Source of the DNA: a virus
Taxonomy: Duplodnaviria > Heunggongvirae > Uroviricota > Caudoviricetes
IMG/VR virus record: IMGVR_UViG_2563366937_000007
Length of the DNA: 52,243 nt
Direction: 5' to 3' (one strand)
Below the pieces are notes generated by a model. That model was not told where the DNA came from, made no database searches, and saw only the letters and a list, made by a program, of their open reading frames with translations. Numbering within the stretch: the first letter of the stretch is position 1; every line of letters starts with the position of its first letter. Positions 36,812-44,960 of this stretch are shown piece by piece. Made by a program: the position numbers and the translations under genes.

Positions 36812-37267
36812 TCAAGCCGTTTTTTGAGCGAGTGATTCTCGCATGGGAATGTATAGCGCATACTCAGCAACGGCCAACCAATTAGCAATTCGCTTTTCGC
36901 ATGTGCTAAAACACCACTCTGGGTGTGCATCATTTAGCAATTCAGCCATTTTGCGTTTGGTCATCCCCCGCCCCTCATACCGTTGCCGAAGGACGCTAAT
37001 CAATCCTGGATGCTCTGCCAGCACCTCACTTATGACCCGATCAATACATAACGCCTCTGCATCAGTACAATGCGCCAGCCAGCTCTTTTGCTTACCGTTA
37101 ATCATATCCCGCAAAAAAGCCTCAAGTTCAGACTTGTTCAGACCTGCTTTTTTCATCCTCCGGAGCGCCTCGTTAATTGCCGTTTTTGTCAGCTTTTTAG
37201 AGGCCAACAACTGATTGAACATATTTCCTGACCTGCCACCGCCAATATACGACCAGCGCCCCCACAT
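36812..37267 (-). CDS. putative late-gene antiterminator (Q-like)
   Basis: Position immediately upstream of the tRNA/lysis cassette; Cys pairs (C-x6-C, C-x3-C); the track's 220-aa version overlaps ybcO, so I take an internal start (could also be 37222). Confidence 0.35.
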   Translation of the reverse strand: MWGRWSYIGGGRSGNMFNQLLASKKLTKTAINEALRRMKKAGLNKSELEAFLRDMINGKQKSWLAHCTDAEALCIDRVISEVLAEHPGLISVLRQRYEGRGMTKRKMAELLNDAHPEWCFSTCEKRIANWLAVAEYALYIPMRESLAQKTA

Positions 37268-37350
37268 ACGCAGTTTGCCCTGAATCCAGACACTTTCCAG
37301 CGTTGCGAGACGAAGGTGTTCTCCGCTTTTTCCTGTATTCGTTGGGTAAA

Positions 37351-37641
37351 TCACAAATATCCCTCCTTTCTCCAGATTTCTTGTGTGCGAAAAACACCTT
37401 CTGCATGCATCAGGCGTAATTCTTCTTTGGTGTAATCGCTGGTTTTTACCCGCCCGTCGATTAGATCGTGGCATGAGCTACAGGCAATCGCCGCCTGCAT
37501 ATCGTGTGGTTTTGTCGCTGTTCCGCACGTTCCCGCCAGTCGGTAATGCGCCAGCACAGACGTTTCCGGATCGTGATTGCAGTAGCCAGGAATTCTGACG
37601 GTGCACATCTGCCCCCGCGCCGCTTTACGTAAATCCACCAT
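37351..37641 (-). CDS. YbcO-like nin-region protein (DUF1364-type)
   Basis: 96 aa; Cys/His cluster (C13, C21, H23, C54, C57, H58); resembles DLP12 YbcO as I remember it. Confidence 0.55.
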   Translation of the reverse strand: MVDLRKAARGQMCTVRIPGYCNHDPETSVLAHYRLAGTCGTATKPHDMQAAIACSSCHDLIDGRVKTSDYTKEELRLMHAEGVFRTQEIWRKEGYL

Positions 37642-38240
37642 TACGCAAACTCCAGCAGCTGCGCGGCCACATTTTCGACTTGTTCCGGAGAGGAAAATTT
37701 ACGGAACAGAATCCAGTTCCACAGCACATTCAGAACAGATTTATAAACCTGCTGAAACTCGGTTTCGTCCATATTCGCAAAAGCGATGGATTTCGCCCGA
37801 CGCCCATGGCTACCGTCCGGATAAAAATGTTCGGTGTAAAATCCAGCCTGAATGGTTACCCACTCGCGAAAAGCCTCAAACGACTTTAGCAATGCCGTAT
37901 CCCGGGTTCTGCGTGTCGCAACTGTATTCAGATATTGCTCTGCGGCATCACTCAGGGCTGGCGTGTGTTCCCGACCAACTGATTCGCACAGGTAATCAAC
38001 GAAACCAGACAGCAGTTCTCGTTCGCGAGGCGTGATCGCCCCACCGACCGGAGTCCAGTAATCGAATCCCAGTTGCAGGAGTTTGAAAAAACGCTTGTGG
38101 AATACGTAGTTACGCACACGCTTAAAGTCTGCGTGTATCCACTCACCTATTTTGATTTGATGCAGAAAATCGCAACTCTCCGGCGTCGCCGGGAGAAGTA
38201 AACCAGAAGAGGTTTGTTTGACCAGTTGTATATGCGCCAT
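37641..38240 (-). CDS. nin-region hypothetical protein, 199 aa (DUF1367-like)
   Basis: ORF-track ORF directly upstream of the YbcO-like gene; family assignment is from memory. Confidence 0.4.
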   Translation of the reverse strand: MAHIQLVKQTSSGLLLPATPESCDFLHQIKIGEWIHADFKRVRNYVFHKRFFKLLQLGFDYWTPVGGAITPRERELLSGFVDYLCESVGREHTPALSDAAEQYLNTVATRRTRDTALLKSFEAFREWVTIQAGFYTEHFYPDGSHGRRAKSIAFANMDETEFQQVYKSVLNVLWNWILFRKFSSPEQVENVAAQLLEFA

Positions 38241-38706: not shown

Positions 38707-38862
38707 TTACTCCTCAGGTTCGTAAGCTGTGAAGACAGCGACCTCCGTCTGGCCGGTTCGGATTCGTACCTCACAGAGGTCTTTCCTCGTTACCAGTGCC
38801 GTCACTATGACGGTTAAACAGATGACGATCAGGGCGATTAACATCGCCTTTTGCTGCTTCAT
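38707..38862 (-). CDS. hok: Hok/Gef-family type I toxin (HokD/RelF-like)
   Basis: 51 aa MKQQKAMLIALIVICLTVIVTALVTRKDLCEVRIRTGQTEVAVFTAYEPEE; AAGGAG sits 9 nt upstream; a short upstream frame ends on the hok ATG; missed by the ORF track. Confidence 0.75.
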   Translation of the reverse strand: MKQQKAMLIALIVICLTVIVTALVTRKDLCEVRIRTGQTEVAVFTAYEPEE

Positions 38863-39384
38863 AGCCTGCTTCTCCTTGACCTTTCGGTCCGTAAGAGGCT
38901 AATCTCTATGTGTCGCATAGATATGGCCTCAGATTAATGTTAAACGTCTTGCAGGACGCGTAATGTTAACTGGGGCTTTTCTCTATCTACCTTTGGTGTT
39001 CATGCCCGAGGCAGATAGCCTCAAGCACCCACAGCAATTCTAACTATCCAATACATCACTGCCAACACTTTAAACTCTTACCCTTTAAAACAAGAACAAA
39101 ATTCAACCAATCAGCATTGGGCGTATACTCATATCCTAGAGAAAACAACTCTTTCTGTACTATTTATATCCATATGATTTATAAGCATTTGCCACTTGCC
39201 ATAGCCGCACAATGACAGTTTGCCATTTGATGTCAATAGATAAAAATGATCGTTTTCAATGAGTTACATACTTGCAAGGCGTTGCACATCAGGCCCGATT
39301 ACGTCAGTATCAAAAGATTACAGATGGTGCATTACTGCCACCTCGCCTTAATGTTCCAGAACTCTCCAACTTGAGGAATTTTCA

Positions 39385-40158
39385 ATGACATCCTTTCAAT
39401 TATCTTTGATTTCTCGTGAAATTGACGGCGAAATAATACATTTACGTGCCAAAGATGGTTACATAAACGCCACATCAATGTGTAGAACTGCGGGCAAACT
39501 GCTCTCTGATTACACTAGACTCAAAACTACTCAAGAGTTTTTTGACGAATTATCACGCGATATGGGAATTCCCATATCGGAGTTAATTCAATCATTTAAA
39601 GGTGGAAGACCTGAAAACCAAGGGACATGGGTGCATCCTGACATCGCTATTAATCTAGCGCAGTGGCTATCGCCCAAATTTGCAGTCCAGGTTTCAAGAT
39701 GGGTTCGTGAATGGATGTCAGGGGAAAGAACTACAGCAGAAATGCCTGTACATTTAAAACGGTACATGGTTAATCGTAGTAGAATTCCTCACACGCACTT
39801 TTCTATTCTTAATGAACTGACATTCAACTTGGTTGCACCTCTTGAACAAGCAGGGTACACACTCCCAGAAAAAATGGTTCCTGACATTTCACAAGGAAGA
39901 GTATTTTCACAATGGTTAAGAGATAATAGAAACATAGAACCCAAAACATTCCCTACCTATGACCATGAATATCCCGATGGTCGCGTATACCCTGCAAGGC
40001 TGTACCCAAATGAATATTTAGCAGATTTCAAAGAACATTTTAACAATATTTGGTTGCCGCAATATGCCCCGAAATACTTCGCTGACCGGGACAAAAAGGC
40101 TCTCGCCTTGATTGAAAAAATTATGCTACCTAACCTCGATGGCAATGAACAGTTCTAA
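39385..40158 (+). CDS. KilA-N domain protein (possible antirepressor-like)
   Basis: 257 aa; N-terminal KilA-N-like segment; on the opposite strand to the surrounding early operon; AT-rich upstream region. Confidence 0.6.
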   Translation: MTSFQLSLISREIDGEIIHLRAKDGYINATSMCRTAGKLLSDYTRLKTTQEFFDELSRDMGIPISELIQSFKGGRPENQGTWVHPDIAINLAQWLSPKFAVQVSRWVREWMSGERTTAEMPVHLKRYMVNRSRIPHTHFSILNELTFNLVAPLEQAGYTLPEKMVPDISQGRVFSQWLRDNRNIEPKTFPTYDHEYPDGRVYPARLYPNEYLADFKEHFNNIWLPQYAPKYFADRDKKALALIEKIMLPNLDGNEQF

Positions 40159-40165
40159 ATGATTA

Positions 40166-40190
40166 GCCAGCCCCATAAGGGCTGGTTATT
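40166..40190 (+). terminator. rho-independent terminator after the KilA-N gene
   Basis: CCAGCCC-CATAA-GGGCTGG hairpin followed by TTATTT. Confidence 0.5.
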
Positions 40191-40198
40191 TAGTATTA

Positions 40199-40331: not shown

Positions 40332-40781
40332 TCACTTTATCCGGCAATTTGCAGCCGGTTTCGCTTTCTTCAGTTGACTAACCAATTGTTTAACCAGCAT
40401 TGTCAATTCGCGAACTTGTTTCCCGGGCTCCCCTTTGCCCTGAAGCAGGGCAGCGCGGCAAGCGTTCCATCCCTCAGCATATGTTTCAGTTACACCATCG
40501 AGATGGCATGTAAGCAAATCCATTTCTTCCGGCACTACGGGCGCTGGAAAAACGGCATAGGATGGCGTCCATTTTGGCGCTTTATCTCCAGCCGAACGCT
40601 GATACCAGTCATCCGGTTTGTATTCATAAAAATCACCAACTGGCTCTGCTTCCAGAGATGCCAGAGCAATTTTGAATAATTCGCCCTCTACCCGTGCCAT
40701 CCCTGAATTGGGGTGGCATTTCTCAATCGCTATTTTTAATTTAGCTTCTTCGATTAATTGCTTTTTGGTTAATTCAGTCAT
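40332..40781 (-). CDS. hypothetical protein, 149 aa
   Basis: ORF-track ORF in the early-right operon. Confidence 0.45.
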   Translation of the reverse strand: MTELTKKQLIEEAKLKIAIEKCHPNSGMARVEGELFKIALASLEAEPVGDFYEYKPDDWYQRSAGDKAPKWTPSYAVFPAPVVPEEMDLLTCHLDGVTETYAEGWNACRAALLQGKGEPGKQVRELTMLVKQLVSQLKKAKPAANCRIK

Positions 40782-40942: not shown

Positions 40943-41365
40943 TCACAACAGCACATCCTGAAAATTACCCTGATAGAACGCCAGTACACGCTGTATGACT
41001 TCGCTCTTCCGGCACTCGCGACAGATTATATTCAGACGCCTGTCATAGCGGCGTATTTCTCCGTCTGGTAATGACCAGATAAGGTCCGGATCAACTACAG
41101 CAGGTTTCTTCACCTTTGCCCTCGATAGTTTTTTGCGGGCGTTTTGCCAGTCCTTACGAGCCTGTTCAGAGGGAAATAGCCCGTAGCCGGAGTTATATAC
41201 ATCGCCACTGGCAACCAGCTCTCTGGCGAGAACGCTCATTAAATATCTTGTCGCACCTGTCTTAGCTTCAAGTTGTCGTAACGTCTCGCGCCCATTCTGG
41301 CGCACGAGTTCAACAACCTGCCCCTTAATTTTTTCCCGCTCTTCTTGTGTAAATACTTTTGCCAT
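40943..41365 (-). CDS. hypothetical protein, about 140 aa (possible winged-helix)
   Basis: GGAGG sits 7 nt before the ATG of MAKVFTQEE.... Confidence 0.45.
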   Translation of the reverse strand: MAKVFTQEEREKIKGQVVELVRQNGRETLRQLEAKTGATRYLMSVLARELVASGDVYNSGYGLFPSEQARKDWQNARKKLSRAKVKKPAVVDPDLIWSLPDGEIRRYDRRLNIICRECRKSEVIQRVLAFYQGNFQDVLL

Positions 41366-41380
41366 AAGCGCCTCCGGCAA

Positions 41381-42144
41381 TCACTTTTCCGATACAACAC
41401 AGCGGGAAGAATCAGTAATCTGGCGAACAATATCCCGGTGCTTGTTCAACTCCCGCAGCGCGGCGCAGACACGCTCCCACTTCTGGACATGGCTTTTCGC
41501 CCGACGCAGTTCACGATTTGCTATATGCAGCGATGGTAAAATCAGGTTATCCGCTTGCGTTTCAGTAAACGATGGCAACGACTGCACAATGTCCGCCACA
41601 GTTTCTGTTTTAATATCTTCCTGTGTTGCAGCTTCCAGTACTGGTAACGCAACACCGGCTGGCTGAGGAAAGGCTTTACCATCAGTTTCCGCTACCGATG
41701 CAGCTTTCGGCTCTGCTGGTAAATTATCGCCCGGCATGCAGTAACGAAATTTACCGTTCTGATTAACGCGAATCAGACGACCTTTACTGATTGCCATTGC
41801 CAGCGTTGAAGCCACTTTGCGTGATGTGATGCCGAAAAACGTAGCCAGTTCTTCCGCCGTTTGTGGGCCACGTTGTTCAATCGTCGCAGTTAAATCGCAC
41901 TCCGAAATTTTTGCGACTGTTGCCGTGGTGGTTTCTTCCGGCAGTTCTGCCTGCTCTGGCTGTTCCTGCTGAACGTTGTTATCAGCCACGCGCCAGGTGT
42001 ATACGCTTTTATCAACGAAGCCAGCCTTTTTCAGTTCCCACAGCTCGTTCAGCACTTCTTCACGACTGATATCAAGTCGCGCAGCCAGTTCTACCGACGT
42101 AGCTTTCCCCATTGCTTTCAGTGCGTCAAAAACAGTCTCCATTA
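41381..42144 (-). CDS. hypothetical protein, about 254 aa, with two winged-helix-like segments
   Basis: Start taken at [13 protein letters not shown]... (GGGAGA upstream). Confidence 0.45.
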
Positions 42145-42164
42145 AATTTTTCTCCCGGTAAAAA

Positions 42165-42911
42165 TTACTTCGCAATTCCTGGCTGGACGACATTCGGACG
42201 CCAGCTCTCCCAGTTAAAATTCACCCATCGCCCGCCGTTCATGGTCATGCGATCCATAATCCGCTCGCCGAGCAATGTTTTCATGGCCCCATAGTTCAGG
42301 TTTGTCAGCATCCCCACGCTGCGCATCGACGCTGTCCGGCGATCAACAATCTGGTGCAGTACCACCTGCTCGTTTTTCGTCTCGCGCTGAATGCCAATTT
42401 CATCAAGAACCAGCAGATCCACTTCGCACAGTTCCCGCAAAAATTTTTCGCCTGATTTCCCGTCGTCATAGCTGGCGTGTAGAGCACTCATGACATCAGC
42501 CACGGTAACCACAATCACTGTCTGGCCATCTTTCAGCAGGCGATTCCCGATTGCCGCCGCCAGATGGTTTTTTCCGGTACCAGGTTTTCCGCTGAACGCA
42601 AAATTTGTACACCCGGTCATCAGTTCATCAGCGATAGATTTCGCCTGGCTCAACGCGTATCGCTGGCCGTCGTTCTGCACCAGGTAATTCGCAAACGAGC
42701 ATTTGCGGTGCAACGGCTGGATGCCGGAGCGATTCAGGATTTTTTCCACCCGCAACTGACGATTCTGACGGTTGATCTCCTCACAACGTTTCTGGCCTTC
42801 TGCAAGTTGCCACTCGCGCCACTCAGCCACCGTCCTGAATGGGGCGGTTACATGTGGCGGGGCCAGTCTGCGGATACGTTCAAGAATGCCGCCTGCCGCA
42901 ATATTTTTCAT
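42165..42911 (-). CDS. ydaV: DnaC-like replication ATPase (IstB-like)
   Basis: 248 aa; Walker [16 protein letters not shown]; Walker B LLVLDEIG. Confidence 0.8.
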
Positions 42912-42917
42912 GGTCAG

Positions 42918-43775
42918 TTACCCCCTGAAGCCTGGCGGGATCGCACTATCCGGTAACGAGACGGTGTTAACCTGTCGGAGTAACGTCTCAGGTCGAACAC
43001 CTTTTGGCGCGAACAAGCCCTGGTATTCATTGGCGATGCTGTGTCGAATCACCTGCTCAGGTGAAAAACCCTGCTGGCGGAATTTTTCCAGCTCCCGTAT
43101 CGCCCCGTTAGCGCCCTGCTCCGTTCGAATCGGTTTACGCAATGCCTGGCGAAATTCAACCCACTCACGCCAAAGCGAGACAGAAATCCAGTTCGGCAAA
43201 GCAATATCCAGAGGGTCAAACTTTTTAACACCTCGATTCCCCCGGGGGGGATTTAGGGGGGGATCTGTTTTTAGATCTTTATCTGTATCTTTATTAGTTG
43301 CCTTTGTGTTGACATCGTGTTCAAACACCACTTCAACATCTGTTTGAACACCTGTTAAATTTCTCTCTTGTTTTGTTTGAACATCTGCTTCCTTTCTGCT
43401 TCTTCTGGCCTGAACCGATGCTTTTCCTGCGGCTGATTTTTTGGTTAATTTTTCCCTGACTGATGCCAGATCTTCCTCAATCCGAAGATGCACCCATTCC
43501 TCGCCGTTATCACAAAAAAACTCCCGCAAGGATGGTTCAACATCAGCCCATCGCTCGTTAGTCAGGCGGGCAATTTTTGCCAGCCTGTTTTTGGGTATTG
43601 GCTTTCCTGTTTGCCAGTAATTGAACATCAGCAACAAATACGCACCGTGCTCCTCTGCTGACAAATGCATGGTGTCAGCCAGGTAATCAGCTATGTACAG
43701 TTGCATGTATGGTAATGCGGCCATAATTGCCCCGTATGATGCTGCCCGGTTGCTTAGAATAAGCACAAACAGCAT
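42918..43775 (-). CDS. ydaU: replication initiation protein (O-like)
   Basis: 285 aa; position between ydaT and the DnaC-like gene; an internal start at 43724 has the better Shine-Dalgarno. Confidence 0.6.
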   Translation of the reverse strand: MLFVLILSNRAASYGAIMAALPYMQLYIADYLADTMHLSAEEHGAYLLLMFNYWQTGKPIPKNRLAKIARLTNERWADVEPSLREFFCDNGEEWVHLRIEEDLASVREKLTKKSAAGKASVQARRSRKEADVQTKQERNLTGVQTDVEVVFEHDVNTKATNKDTDKDLKTDPPLNPPRGNRGVKKFDPLDIALPNWISVSLWREWVEFRQALRKPIRTEQGANGAIRELEKFRQQGFSPEQVIRHSIANEYQGLFAPKGVRPETLLRQVNTVSLPDSAIPPGFRG

Positions 43776-44517: not shown

Positions 44518-44540
44518 CAAGAGCGAATATCATTGAACTT

Positions 44541-44960
44541 ATGGTTCATGAAGATAAAGCGCGTAAAGAGTTCGCCAGTAGGCTTGCGCTAGCCTGTGAA
44601 AACGCTGGTTATGAACAACATGGAAGGCAGGCAGAAATTGCCCGTCGAATGAAATTAACACCAAAAGCGGTTAGCAAATGGTTTAATGGCGAAACAATTC
44701 CTCGCCGAGAGAAATTAAGGGAATTAGCAACACTCATTGGAACAACACCAACCTATCTTTTGGGAGAGGATACAGAAGAAAGTGGACAGGTACGTTTCTA
44801 TCAGGAGTTAAATCCAAGACAAAAAATCATCATTGACCTTCTGGACGAGCTCCCTGACAGTGAGACAGATGAACTTTTAAAAACTCTTGAGGAGAAAAAA
44901 CAGAAGTACAATGCAATTTACGAAGAGTTAGCACGAAAGAAAAAACAAAAAGCCTCTTAA
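44541..44960 (+). CDS. racR: CI-like prophage repressor (HTH_XRE)
   Basis: 139 aa; HTH segment RQAEIARRMKLTPKAVSKWFNGE; divergent from the cro-like gene. Confidence 0.75.
   Translation: MVHEDKARKEFASRLALACENAGYEQHGRQAEIARRMKLTPKAVSKWFNGETIPRREKLRELATLIGTTPTYLLGEDTEESGQVRFYQELNPRQKIIIDLLDELPDSETDELLKTLEEKKQKYNAIYEELARKKKQKAS

Follow-up and report, generated by a model that had tools for sequence, protein, structure and literature searches.

What does a gene that is transcribed against the early-right operon of a Rac-like prophage do for the prophage that carries it? We addressed this question for the gene at 39385..40158 of the virus record IMGVR_UViG_2563366937_000007 (Caudoviricetes), the whole stretch of which, 52,243 nucleotides (nt) long, is called the window here. 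The product of the gene, 257 amino acids (aa), is identical or near-identical to WP_000200358.1, labelled 'KilA-N domain-containing protein'. An earlier note on this DNA had described a KilA-N gene lying opposite to the early-right operon, and this description is borne out: the gene is on the + strand, the genes around it are all on the - strand, and residues 14-112 match the Pfam KilA-N family PF04383 (E=3.6e-27, 94.8 bits against a cut-off of 23.8 bits). Here we show that the protein is related over its full length to BstA, and we propose that the gene belongs, as a divergent member, to the BstA family of abortive infection proteins of prophages and probably acts in the manner set out below. 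Membership of the family, taken alone, is much more secure than this full functional statement. The BstA family is already known; what is new is a divergent subclade, a relocated cassette and a conserved palindrome inside the gene.

Lysogens produce BstA of phage BTP1 and its homologues of K. pneumoniae and E. coli NCTC10963 (PMC8585504). The protein co-localises with infecting phage DNA, stops its replication and causes abortive infection, and a short DNA element termed aba silences BstA during the lytic cycle of its own prophage (PMC8585504). The aba element of BTP1, the only one that was mapped, is 63 bp long, extends from -29 to +34 across the start codon and carries terminal CCCGCC direct repeats; its action is specific to the homologue and is exerted as DNA, from multicopy or replicating elements (PMC8585504). 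BstA has a two-domain structure and is often encoded downstream of a repressor, and how it senses foreign replication and how aba silences it were left unresolved (PMC8585504). The table of 72 homologues of Owen et al. 2021, where the E. coli entries measure 849-918 bp, does not contain the window protein (PMC8585504). A literature search found no later mechanistic or structural paper on BstA.

The KilA-N protein is a divergent BstA

Comparison of the window protein with the PHROG profiles gave PHROG 6287, 'BstA abortive infection system, replication inhibitor', as the best full-length match (residues 1-254, E=5.3e-89). The PADLOC BstA model PDLC02356 matched residues 119-238 (E=3.3e-21), aligned over 43% of its length (profile positions 148-272 of 292), and BLASTP against BstA-BTP1 (307 aa) aligned residues 125-251 with 32% identity over 142 aligned positions (E=4e-16). 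When a profile of 68 homologues was compared with a profile of 33 BTP1-type sequences by hhalign, the two aligned over 233 columns, that is essentially full length, with a probability of 98% and E=2.8e-13. Twelve residues are invariant across both families, and 12/12 are kept in the window protein. The homologue cluster comprises 355 member sequences.

Precomputed Pfam annotation assigns both PF26567 and PF04383 to close homologues, the nearest of which is 100% identical, while the BstA-BTP1 family carries PF26567 alone and no PF04383; UniRef names the PF26567 proteins 'BstA-like C-terminal domain-containing protein'. PF26567 is outside the Pfam set used for our direct scan, and its assignment is by way of the precomputed annotation of homologues. 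The direct scan (E<=1) found no domain in the C-terminal half, its only matches, KilA-N and a sub-threshold RHH_3, being confined to the N-terminal half, and NCBIfam has no model for the protein. An AlphaFold2 model (predicted local distance difference test score 92.4) has two domains with a linker near residues 111-121, and its N-domain is predicted to adopt the APSES/KilA-N DNA-binding fold.

The earlier note had left the C-terminal 150 aa unassigned and had considered an antirepressor, an exclusion function or something else. The domain search that it suggested for this half was run and returned a BstA-like C-domain, by PADLOC, by PF26567 on the homologues and by BLASTP to BTP1, and no antirepressor domain, so the C-terminal half can no longer be called unassigned. 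No Ant, AntA or ANT-domain was present at the C-terminus in the Pfam scan at E<=1. Among the roles considered, abortive infection by the prophage, and not antirepression, is the most likely one, in view of the BstA domain of the C-terminal half and the full-length match to PHROG 6287.

The window protein resembles the BstA proteins of BTP1, K. pneumoniae and E. coli in its full-length profile homology, in being prophage-borne, in belonging to the same PHROG and in having close relatives in the slot between cI and N. It differs from BstA-BTP1 in having a canonical Pfam KilA-N domain and in being about 50 aa shorter; its gene lies within the early-right operon but on the other strand, 4.4 kb away from the repressor and with its own 5' region and terminator, and it has an intragenic palindrome which BTP1-type bstA lacks. 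From other KilA-N/APSES proteins (PF04383; Mbp1 and Bqt4 structures) it differs by fusion to the BstA C-domain. Like RexAB of lambda, it would be an accessory prophage-encoded defence, and its relatives share the cI-N hotspot that rexAB holds in lambda (PMC8585504); however, the proteins and mechanism are unrelated, and the window copy is outside that hotspot. The protein is thus best assigned, on sequence and predicted structure, to a structurally distinct BstA subclade, of a type outside those tested, at a non-canonical location.

Close relatives lie downstream of the repressor

In PhiR5_2 (86% identity) and Proteus phage vB_BPM-V3 (80%) the gene is found directly after cI and before N, as is bstA in BTP1. 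A cI homologue ends at most 110 bp upstream in 33 of the 57 viral contigs with a relative of 78-88% identity. For the other 24 contigs, 22 loci were examined, and 14 of the 19 distinct upstream open reading frames (ORFs) encode repressors of the Peptidase_S24/helix-turn-helix (HTH) type. About 85-90% of the 78-88% relatives lie downstream of a repressor. The repressors range in identity from 30% to 100%, which indicates that the gene keeps its slot while moving among immunity types.

The wider family is less uniform, with an S24 repressor upstream in only 5/69 genomic loci and diverse contexts. IS1595 or IS1 transposases are frequent upstream neighbours elsewhere in the family. A large protein search yielded 2,651 proteins at E<=1e-5, and among the 80 genomic loci that were fetched many titles name Verrucomicrobiota, Bacteroidetes, Planctomycetes, Nitrospirota and candidate-phyla bacteria, at 50-60% aa identity. 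Such homologues across phyla imply a wide horizontal spread of a strongly conserved protein. Gracilibacteria and Peribacteria are also named among the homologues of 50-60% identity (L043, L051, L084, L022, L038, L066 and others), many of which come from metagenome-assembled genomes.

The gene is part of a discrete, relocated cassette

The gene stands in a cassette of about 1,160 bp (39043..40198), which takes the place of about 33 bp in phage vB_EcoS-689R5, where both flanks are joined without the cassette; these borders come from comparison with that phage and from the limits of flank similarity in BLAST. BLAST against phages and 5,426 complete E. coli genomes likewise showed that similarity to other lambdoid prophages ends at 39042, the end of hok/sok, and restarts at about 40203. 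The right edge of the cassette abuts the stop codon of a 27-aa ORF, and the hok/sok end is a recurrent mosaic joint in lambdoid prophages, as seen by BLAST to mokW/sokW of 933W and others. Base composition also differs from that of the flanks: the guanine-plus-cytosine (GC) content is 37.7% in the upstream 342 bp and 40.4% in the gene as compared to 48-50% in the flanks, and the GC content at third codon positions is 0.35 in the gene as against 0.47-0.62 in the flanks. The cassette is a discrete, compositionally foreign insertion.

Of 5,426 complete E. coli genomes, 117 carry the cassette, with the gene intact and nearly always at >=99% identity; it was also found in three Rac-like phage records and 15 IMG/VR contigs (>=98.6% identity in the contigs). 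All occurrences share the 342-bp upstream stretch and the hok/sok left flank. The upstream stretch was met only with this gene (3 phage records, 15/15 window-type viral contigs, 0 plasmids); a search of phage and plasmid collections revealed no source for it apart from this gene, and neither three-frame translation nor alignment with cI-downstream relatives revealed a cI remnant in it. Taken with the position of the close relatives, the window arrangement is thus secondary: the gene has been relocated to the nin-like region and has a new 5' region there.

The earlier note had called the gene moron-like, with an AT-rich upstream region and a terminator of its own. The composition of the 342 bp agrees with the former, and a hairpin with a T-rich tail, on the + strand, with the latter; there is no T-run on the - strand. 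The term moron-like itself fits a discrete low-GC cassette with a terminator-like hairpin, on the opposite strand and missing from otherwise similar phages. As in classical lambdoid morons, there is an extra gene with its own terminator, probably its own promoter and a deviant base composition, missing from collinear relatives. In contrast to classical morons, the same gene is in most relatives an operon member downstream of cI, so that the moron form is secondary, and the promoter of the window cassette is a predicted one (9/12 consensus match). We infer a promoter in the 342-bp upstream region. Three direct repeats were also noticed in this region, each of which may be due to chance: a 15-nt tandem pair (39162..39191), two copies of TTTGCCAYTTG 31 bp apart (39188..39229), and two copies of TTTTCAATGA at 39253 and 39379, 126 bp apart, the second of which spans the start codon.

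A palindrome inside the gene co-varies with the protein

A perfect 22-bp palindrome, CGATATGGGAATTCCCATATCG, lies within the KilA-N coding region, where it codes for the turn that connects helices 47-60 and 64-67. It was met while we were seeking an embedded aba-like element through the use of identical codons at conserved residues. In the window gene and seven relatives (70-87% aa identity), synonymous-codon identity was 0.76-0.80 at codons 51-75 as compared to about 0.45 elsewhere. The palindrome occurs once in the window, where 0 matches are expected at up to 3 mismatches, and no further copies were found there. Among 83 sequences (the window gene and 82 homologous loci), 47 carry the residues G-I-P together with a palindrome, with arms of 11-17 bp, at the homologous position.

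Sequence changes in the palindrome compensate each other, and the amino acids on either side vary along with them. Residues DMGIPIS go with the DNA sequence GATATGGGAATTCCCATATC, ETGIPVS with GAAACGGGAATTCCCGTTTC, DAGIPAS with GATGCCGGAATTCCGGCATC and SAGIPAD with TCTGCGGGAATTCCCGCAGA, while SMGIPID, DIGIPIS and DVGIPTS accompany further DNA variants. We determined the covariation over 14 pairs in 44 distinct sequences, which had been picked by the G-I-P motif only. Paired cells amounted to 82.3%, as compared to 69.0 ± 1.2 in shuffled sequences and 33-46% with a slid partner column; 76 cells were changed on both sides, as against 29.4 ± 4.1; and the covariation score was 0.350, as against 0.129 ± 0.014 in shuffled sequences (0/500 as high) and 0.04-0.10 in slid controls. 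Relatedness inflates the shuffle statistics, but an artefact is disfavoured by the slid controls and by the occurrence of several distinct compensated types. With the amino acids fixed in a codon null model, 9.95 of 11 pairs were complementary, as compared to 7.0 by synonymous reshuffling. The third base of the codon before Gly was complementary to the third base of the Pro codon in 43 of the 44 sequences (G:C in 31, C:G in 12).

Palindromes in other genes and in non-coding DNA

In four phage genes chosen by KilA-N similarity alone, 8-13 of the 16 pairs were retained at these codons. The palindrome or inverted repeat is kept in several KilA-N genes whose C-termini are unrelated to BstA (L247:574-1344, L248:532-1362, L249:541-1068 and L250:589-1197; also L275, L276, L329, L363 and others). 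We scanned IMG/VR for CGNNNNGGGAATTCCCNNNNCG, and among the 120 sites listed as matches the NNNN was fully complementary in 83, where chance would give 1 in 256; 26 of these 120 sites were in KilA-N ORFs, 16 of them without BstA_C.

The identical 22-mer is also present in non-coding DNA, just after the hok/sok end (...CAGCAATTCTACTTAACTCT...GCAAACCGTTTTTACC), in at least 38 of the scanned viral loci, for example at L256:2659-2680, L258:9663-9684 and L261:8534-8555. This orphan copy lies no more than about 35 bp from the joint at which the window cassette starts, and immediately 3' of another small - strand ORF, in lambdoid prophages that are without the 257-aa gene. A different small hydrophobic ORF is found in these prophages at the place of the 27-aa ORF. 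The context of the orphan (>=80% of a 121-nt query) was detected in 686/5,426 complete E. coli genomes and in 0 curated phage records. When the 17 nt on the right side of the orphan (GAATGAATTCAGTTCAC) were compared with those of the gene (GAGTTAATTCAATCATT), 11 positions matched in register, but the orphan side contains a stop codon. We therefore read the orphan as a probable remnant of a KilA-N gene, of which the palindrome alone is still perfect.

Several different palindromes of the KilA-N type, together with related hairpins, were observed in non-coding DNA at L253:5700-6240 and L300:3700-4080, for example TAAAAACGGGAATTCCCGTTTTTA, CGATATGGGAATTCCCATATCG and CGAAGTCGGGATTCCGACCACG. Standing side by side, they could form an array of sites. 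The homologous regions of baculoviruses are made up of imperfect palindromes centred on GAATTC. Literature searches on the 22-mer, the protein accession, PF26567 and KilA-N with palindromes returned nothing relevant, and no DNA specificity of any bacterial or phage KilA-N domain was found in the literature searched.

Proposed mode of action

By homology with the characterised BstA proteins (PMC8585504), the window protein would be made in the lysogen, at a time when P_R is repressed, from a promoter within the upstream 342 bp. Upon infection by an unrelated phage, it would move to the replicating phage DNA and block its replication (PMC8585504). The infected cell would still die or lyse and no progeny would come out, so that the clonal population and the resident prophage would be protected. 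The gene order suggests that upon induction P_R transcription would cross the cassette antisense on its way to hok, ninB and Q; it must do so, since the terminator is without a T-run on the - strand. Such antisense transcription would lower the synthesis of the protein in the prophage's own lytic growth. At the canonical site, loss of P_RM activity would presumably lower expression likewise.

A number of observations weigh against this proposal. The PADLOC BstA model does not cover the N-terminal half, where the two types can be aligned at profile level only, and a search with the modelled C-domain found no solved structural relative, its fold giving no mechanistic clue. The characterised BstA proteins all come from outside the subclade of the window gene: full-length identity among the tested proteins is 42-48% (42% for BTP1 vs the E. 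coli type), but the window protein is 32% identical to that of BTP1 and 23% (over 128 residues) to that of the E. coli type, represented here by the sequence from E. coli O178:H19, and in the C-domain only. The gene is not immediately downstream of the repressor (44541..44960), replication genes being in between, so its expression in the lysogen rests on a weak predicted promoter, and promoter-like matches in the upstream region are fewer than in shuffled sequence. At the start codon we found no convincing aba-like element of 63 bp with terminal direct repeats, only the TTTTCAATGA repeat, and upstream sequence was not conserved among close relatives. As aba was mapped in BTP1 only and is homologue-specific, sequence alone cannot prove its absence.

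The palindrome may be DNA that is recognised by the KilA-N domain of its own product, and would then serve as a self-immunity element, the counterpart of aba, as an autoregulatory site, or as both. The palindrome as self-DNA would fit aba, since aba is DNA-based, acts in trans at high copy and is homologue-specific. On the sequences, it is a candidate cis-acting DNA element and possibly the aba equivalent for self-immunity. In its full version, the proposal is that a large KilA-N clade carries its own binding site within the codons of the HTH turn (G-I-P and adjoining residues), site and protein co-varying by construction; that in the BstA types the palindrome would be an aba-equivalent off-switch on the replicating prophage; and that the orphan 22-mers, in the hok/sok spacer of many other E. 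coli lambdoid prophages, would be decoys through which those phages evade this BstA. This version is speculative and, taken whole, we consider it unlikely to hold, while binding of the palindrome by the KilA-N domain alone may be given somewhat more credence. The orphan copies could be operators or escape decoys, and the role of the palindrome in immunity is a conjecture.

The distribution of the palindrome is partly unfavourable to such a role. The 36/82 homologous loci without G-I-P (most have Q-T-G-L-P-E and similar) are also without the palindrome, and no consistent position was found for a displaced palindrome in this subclade. No palindrome with arms of >=9 bp was detected inside or upstream of the gene in 60 distinct BTP1-type bstA viral loci, while KilA-N genes without BstA_C do carry it. 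Being present in the latter and missing from the former, the palindrome is a property of a KilA-N clade and not of BstA as such. In addition, aba of BTP1 is neither palindromic nor at the position of the palindrome. In eight Stenotrophomonas loci (L031-L037, L044, L046, L061 listed), a member of the palindrome-less subclade adjoins aceK, in surroundings that look chromosomal and not prophage-borne.

Alternative explanations

The gene might encode, instead of a defence protein, a KilA-N transcription regulator or antirepressor acting on its own lysis-lysogeny switch or on heterologous repressors. KilA-N is the DNA-binding domain of many phage regulators, residues 13-118 match PHROG 129, 'transcriptional regulator' (E=9e-25), and an intragenic palindrome shared with KilA-N genes of other C-termini would suit an autoregulatory operator. 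However, it is BstA and not PHROG 129 that gives the best full-length match, the C-terminal half is a BstA domain in which the Pfam scan found no regulator domain or any other, and the single occurrence of the palindrome leaves no second operator near the immunity region or elsewhere in the window; we regard a regulator as improbable. An accessory of the lytic cycle or of host killing, comparable to KilA of phage P1 and silent in the lysogen, would share the KilA-N domain that names that family, and the weak predicted promoter would agree with it. Transcription of the gene against the early-right operon, with a terminator on the + strand only, means that early lytic transcription opposes the gene, and in its close relatives the gene follows cI directly and in the same orientation, at a position that is expressed in lysogens, so that we give this explanation very little weight. 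Hardly any more can be given, and if anything a shade less, to the cassette being a decaying passenger without present function in this prophage. It has been displaced from the canonical site, and joints without the cassette or with the orphan palindrome are commoner than the full cassette (686 vs 117 genomes), but the ORF is intact with the family-invariant residues all kept, and the near-identity of the copies in the 117 genomes and 15 viral contigs, along with the cluster of 355 sequences, argues against decay. A BstA-type abortive infection protein thus remains our preferred reading of the gene.

For the palindrome, the alternative to a protein-binding DNA site is an RNA hairpin (for mRNA stability, as an RNase III site or as a translational pause) or a recombination joint. 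The palindrome folds well as a single strand (-11.1 kcal/mol as single-stranded DNA, z=-4.3), a LoVEphage KilA-N gene keeps only the outer 9-bp stem with an unpaired 8-nt centre, as in a hairpin loop, and the orphan copies stand at a mosaic joint, immediately 3' of a small ORF. Against an RNA, nearly all of the compensation is by Watson-Crick pairs, and one-sided or G-U states are few; G-U made up 4/33 of the non-Watson-Crick cells among the seven core pairs, which is not above chance. The symmetry mostly runs through the central 4 nt, including the change from GGAATTCC to GGTATACC, which would be needless in a hairpin loop, no U-run follows the palindrome on either strand, and Rfam detected only sok in the cassette and no family at the palindrome. 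The palindrome fits a DNA-level element better than an RNA hairpin, and we judge the hairpin or joint rather doubtful, though it has a real chance of being correct.

Implications for BstA and KilA-N

This subclade supplies a concrete, mutable candidate ligand for BstA, namely a 22-bp palindrome that co-varies with the protein across phyla, and the natural orphan palindromes can be tested as escape elements. Together, the co-varying palindrome and its orphan copies offer a testable handle on BstA self-immunity and on DNA recognition by KilA-N. If it is true that KilA-N binds the palindrome in its own gene, this would be the first sequence specificity for a viral DNA-binding domain that is very widespread but little understood. 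In E. coli, where this type alone is present in about 2% of complete genomes, the BstA repertoire may also be under-counted: since just 43% of the length of the PADLOC model is covered, defence finders that filter on coverage may miss the subclade.

Layout of the locus

The features of the cassette and its surroundings are given in Table 1.

Table 1. Features of the KilA-N/BstA-like cassette and neighbouring genes (positions in the window)
Feature	Position	Strand	Remarks
Q-like, DUF1364 and NinB-like genes	36812..38240	-	Left of cassette
hok	38707..38862	-	Hok-like 51-aa ORF
Left flank, whole hok/sok type I toxin-antitoxin module	38707..39042	-	Cassette starts at its end
sok RNA	38860..39030	-	Rfam sok RF01794, 101.5 bits
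Cassette upstream region, presumed promoter	39043..39384	+	342 bp
Best sigma-70-like match	39220..39247	+	TTGCCA-16-AAAAAT, 9/12 consensus
KilA-N/BstA-like coding sequence	39385..40158	+	ATG start, 257-aa ORF
KilA-N DNA-binding domain, APSES-like fold (predicted)	39424..39720	+	Residues 14-112
Perfect 22-bp palindrome	39558..39579	both	Codons R58-S65, R-D-M-G-I-P-I-S
BstA-like C-terminal domain	39739..40137	+	About residues 119-251; PF26567 by precomputed annotation
Terminator-like hairpin	40164..40188	+	10-bp stem, 6 G-C pairs, 5-nt loop, then TTTAGTATTA; cassette end
Small hydrophobic ORF, 27 aa	40199..40282	-	MTWSEAFTTVGIAMAVALVVYSICRWG; right flank, early-right operon; good Shine-Dalgarno
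149-aa ORF	40332..40781	-	Right of cassette
DUF977-like, DUF1627-like, DnaC-like and O-like genes	40943..43775	-	
cII/YdaT-like gene, then cro-like gene	cro-like gene ends at 44533	-	
Repressor-like HTH gene	44541..44960		Divergent; 4.4 kb from the 257-aa gene

The window is collinear with an intact Rac-like prophage that adjoins ttcA in E. coli 7/2, the gene set of which comprises tail, head and terminase genes, trkG, lysis genes, recET, xis and int.

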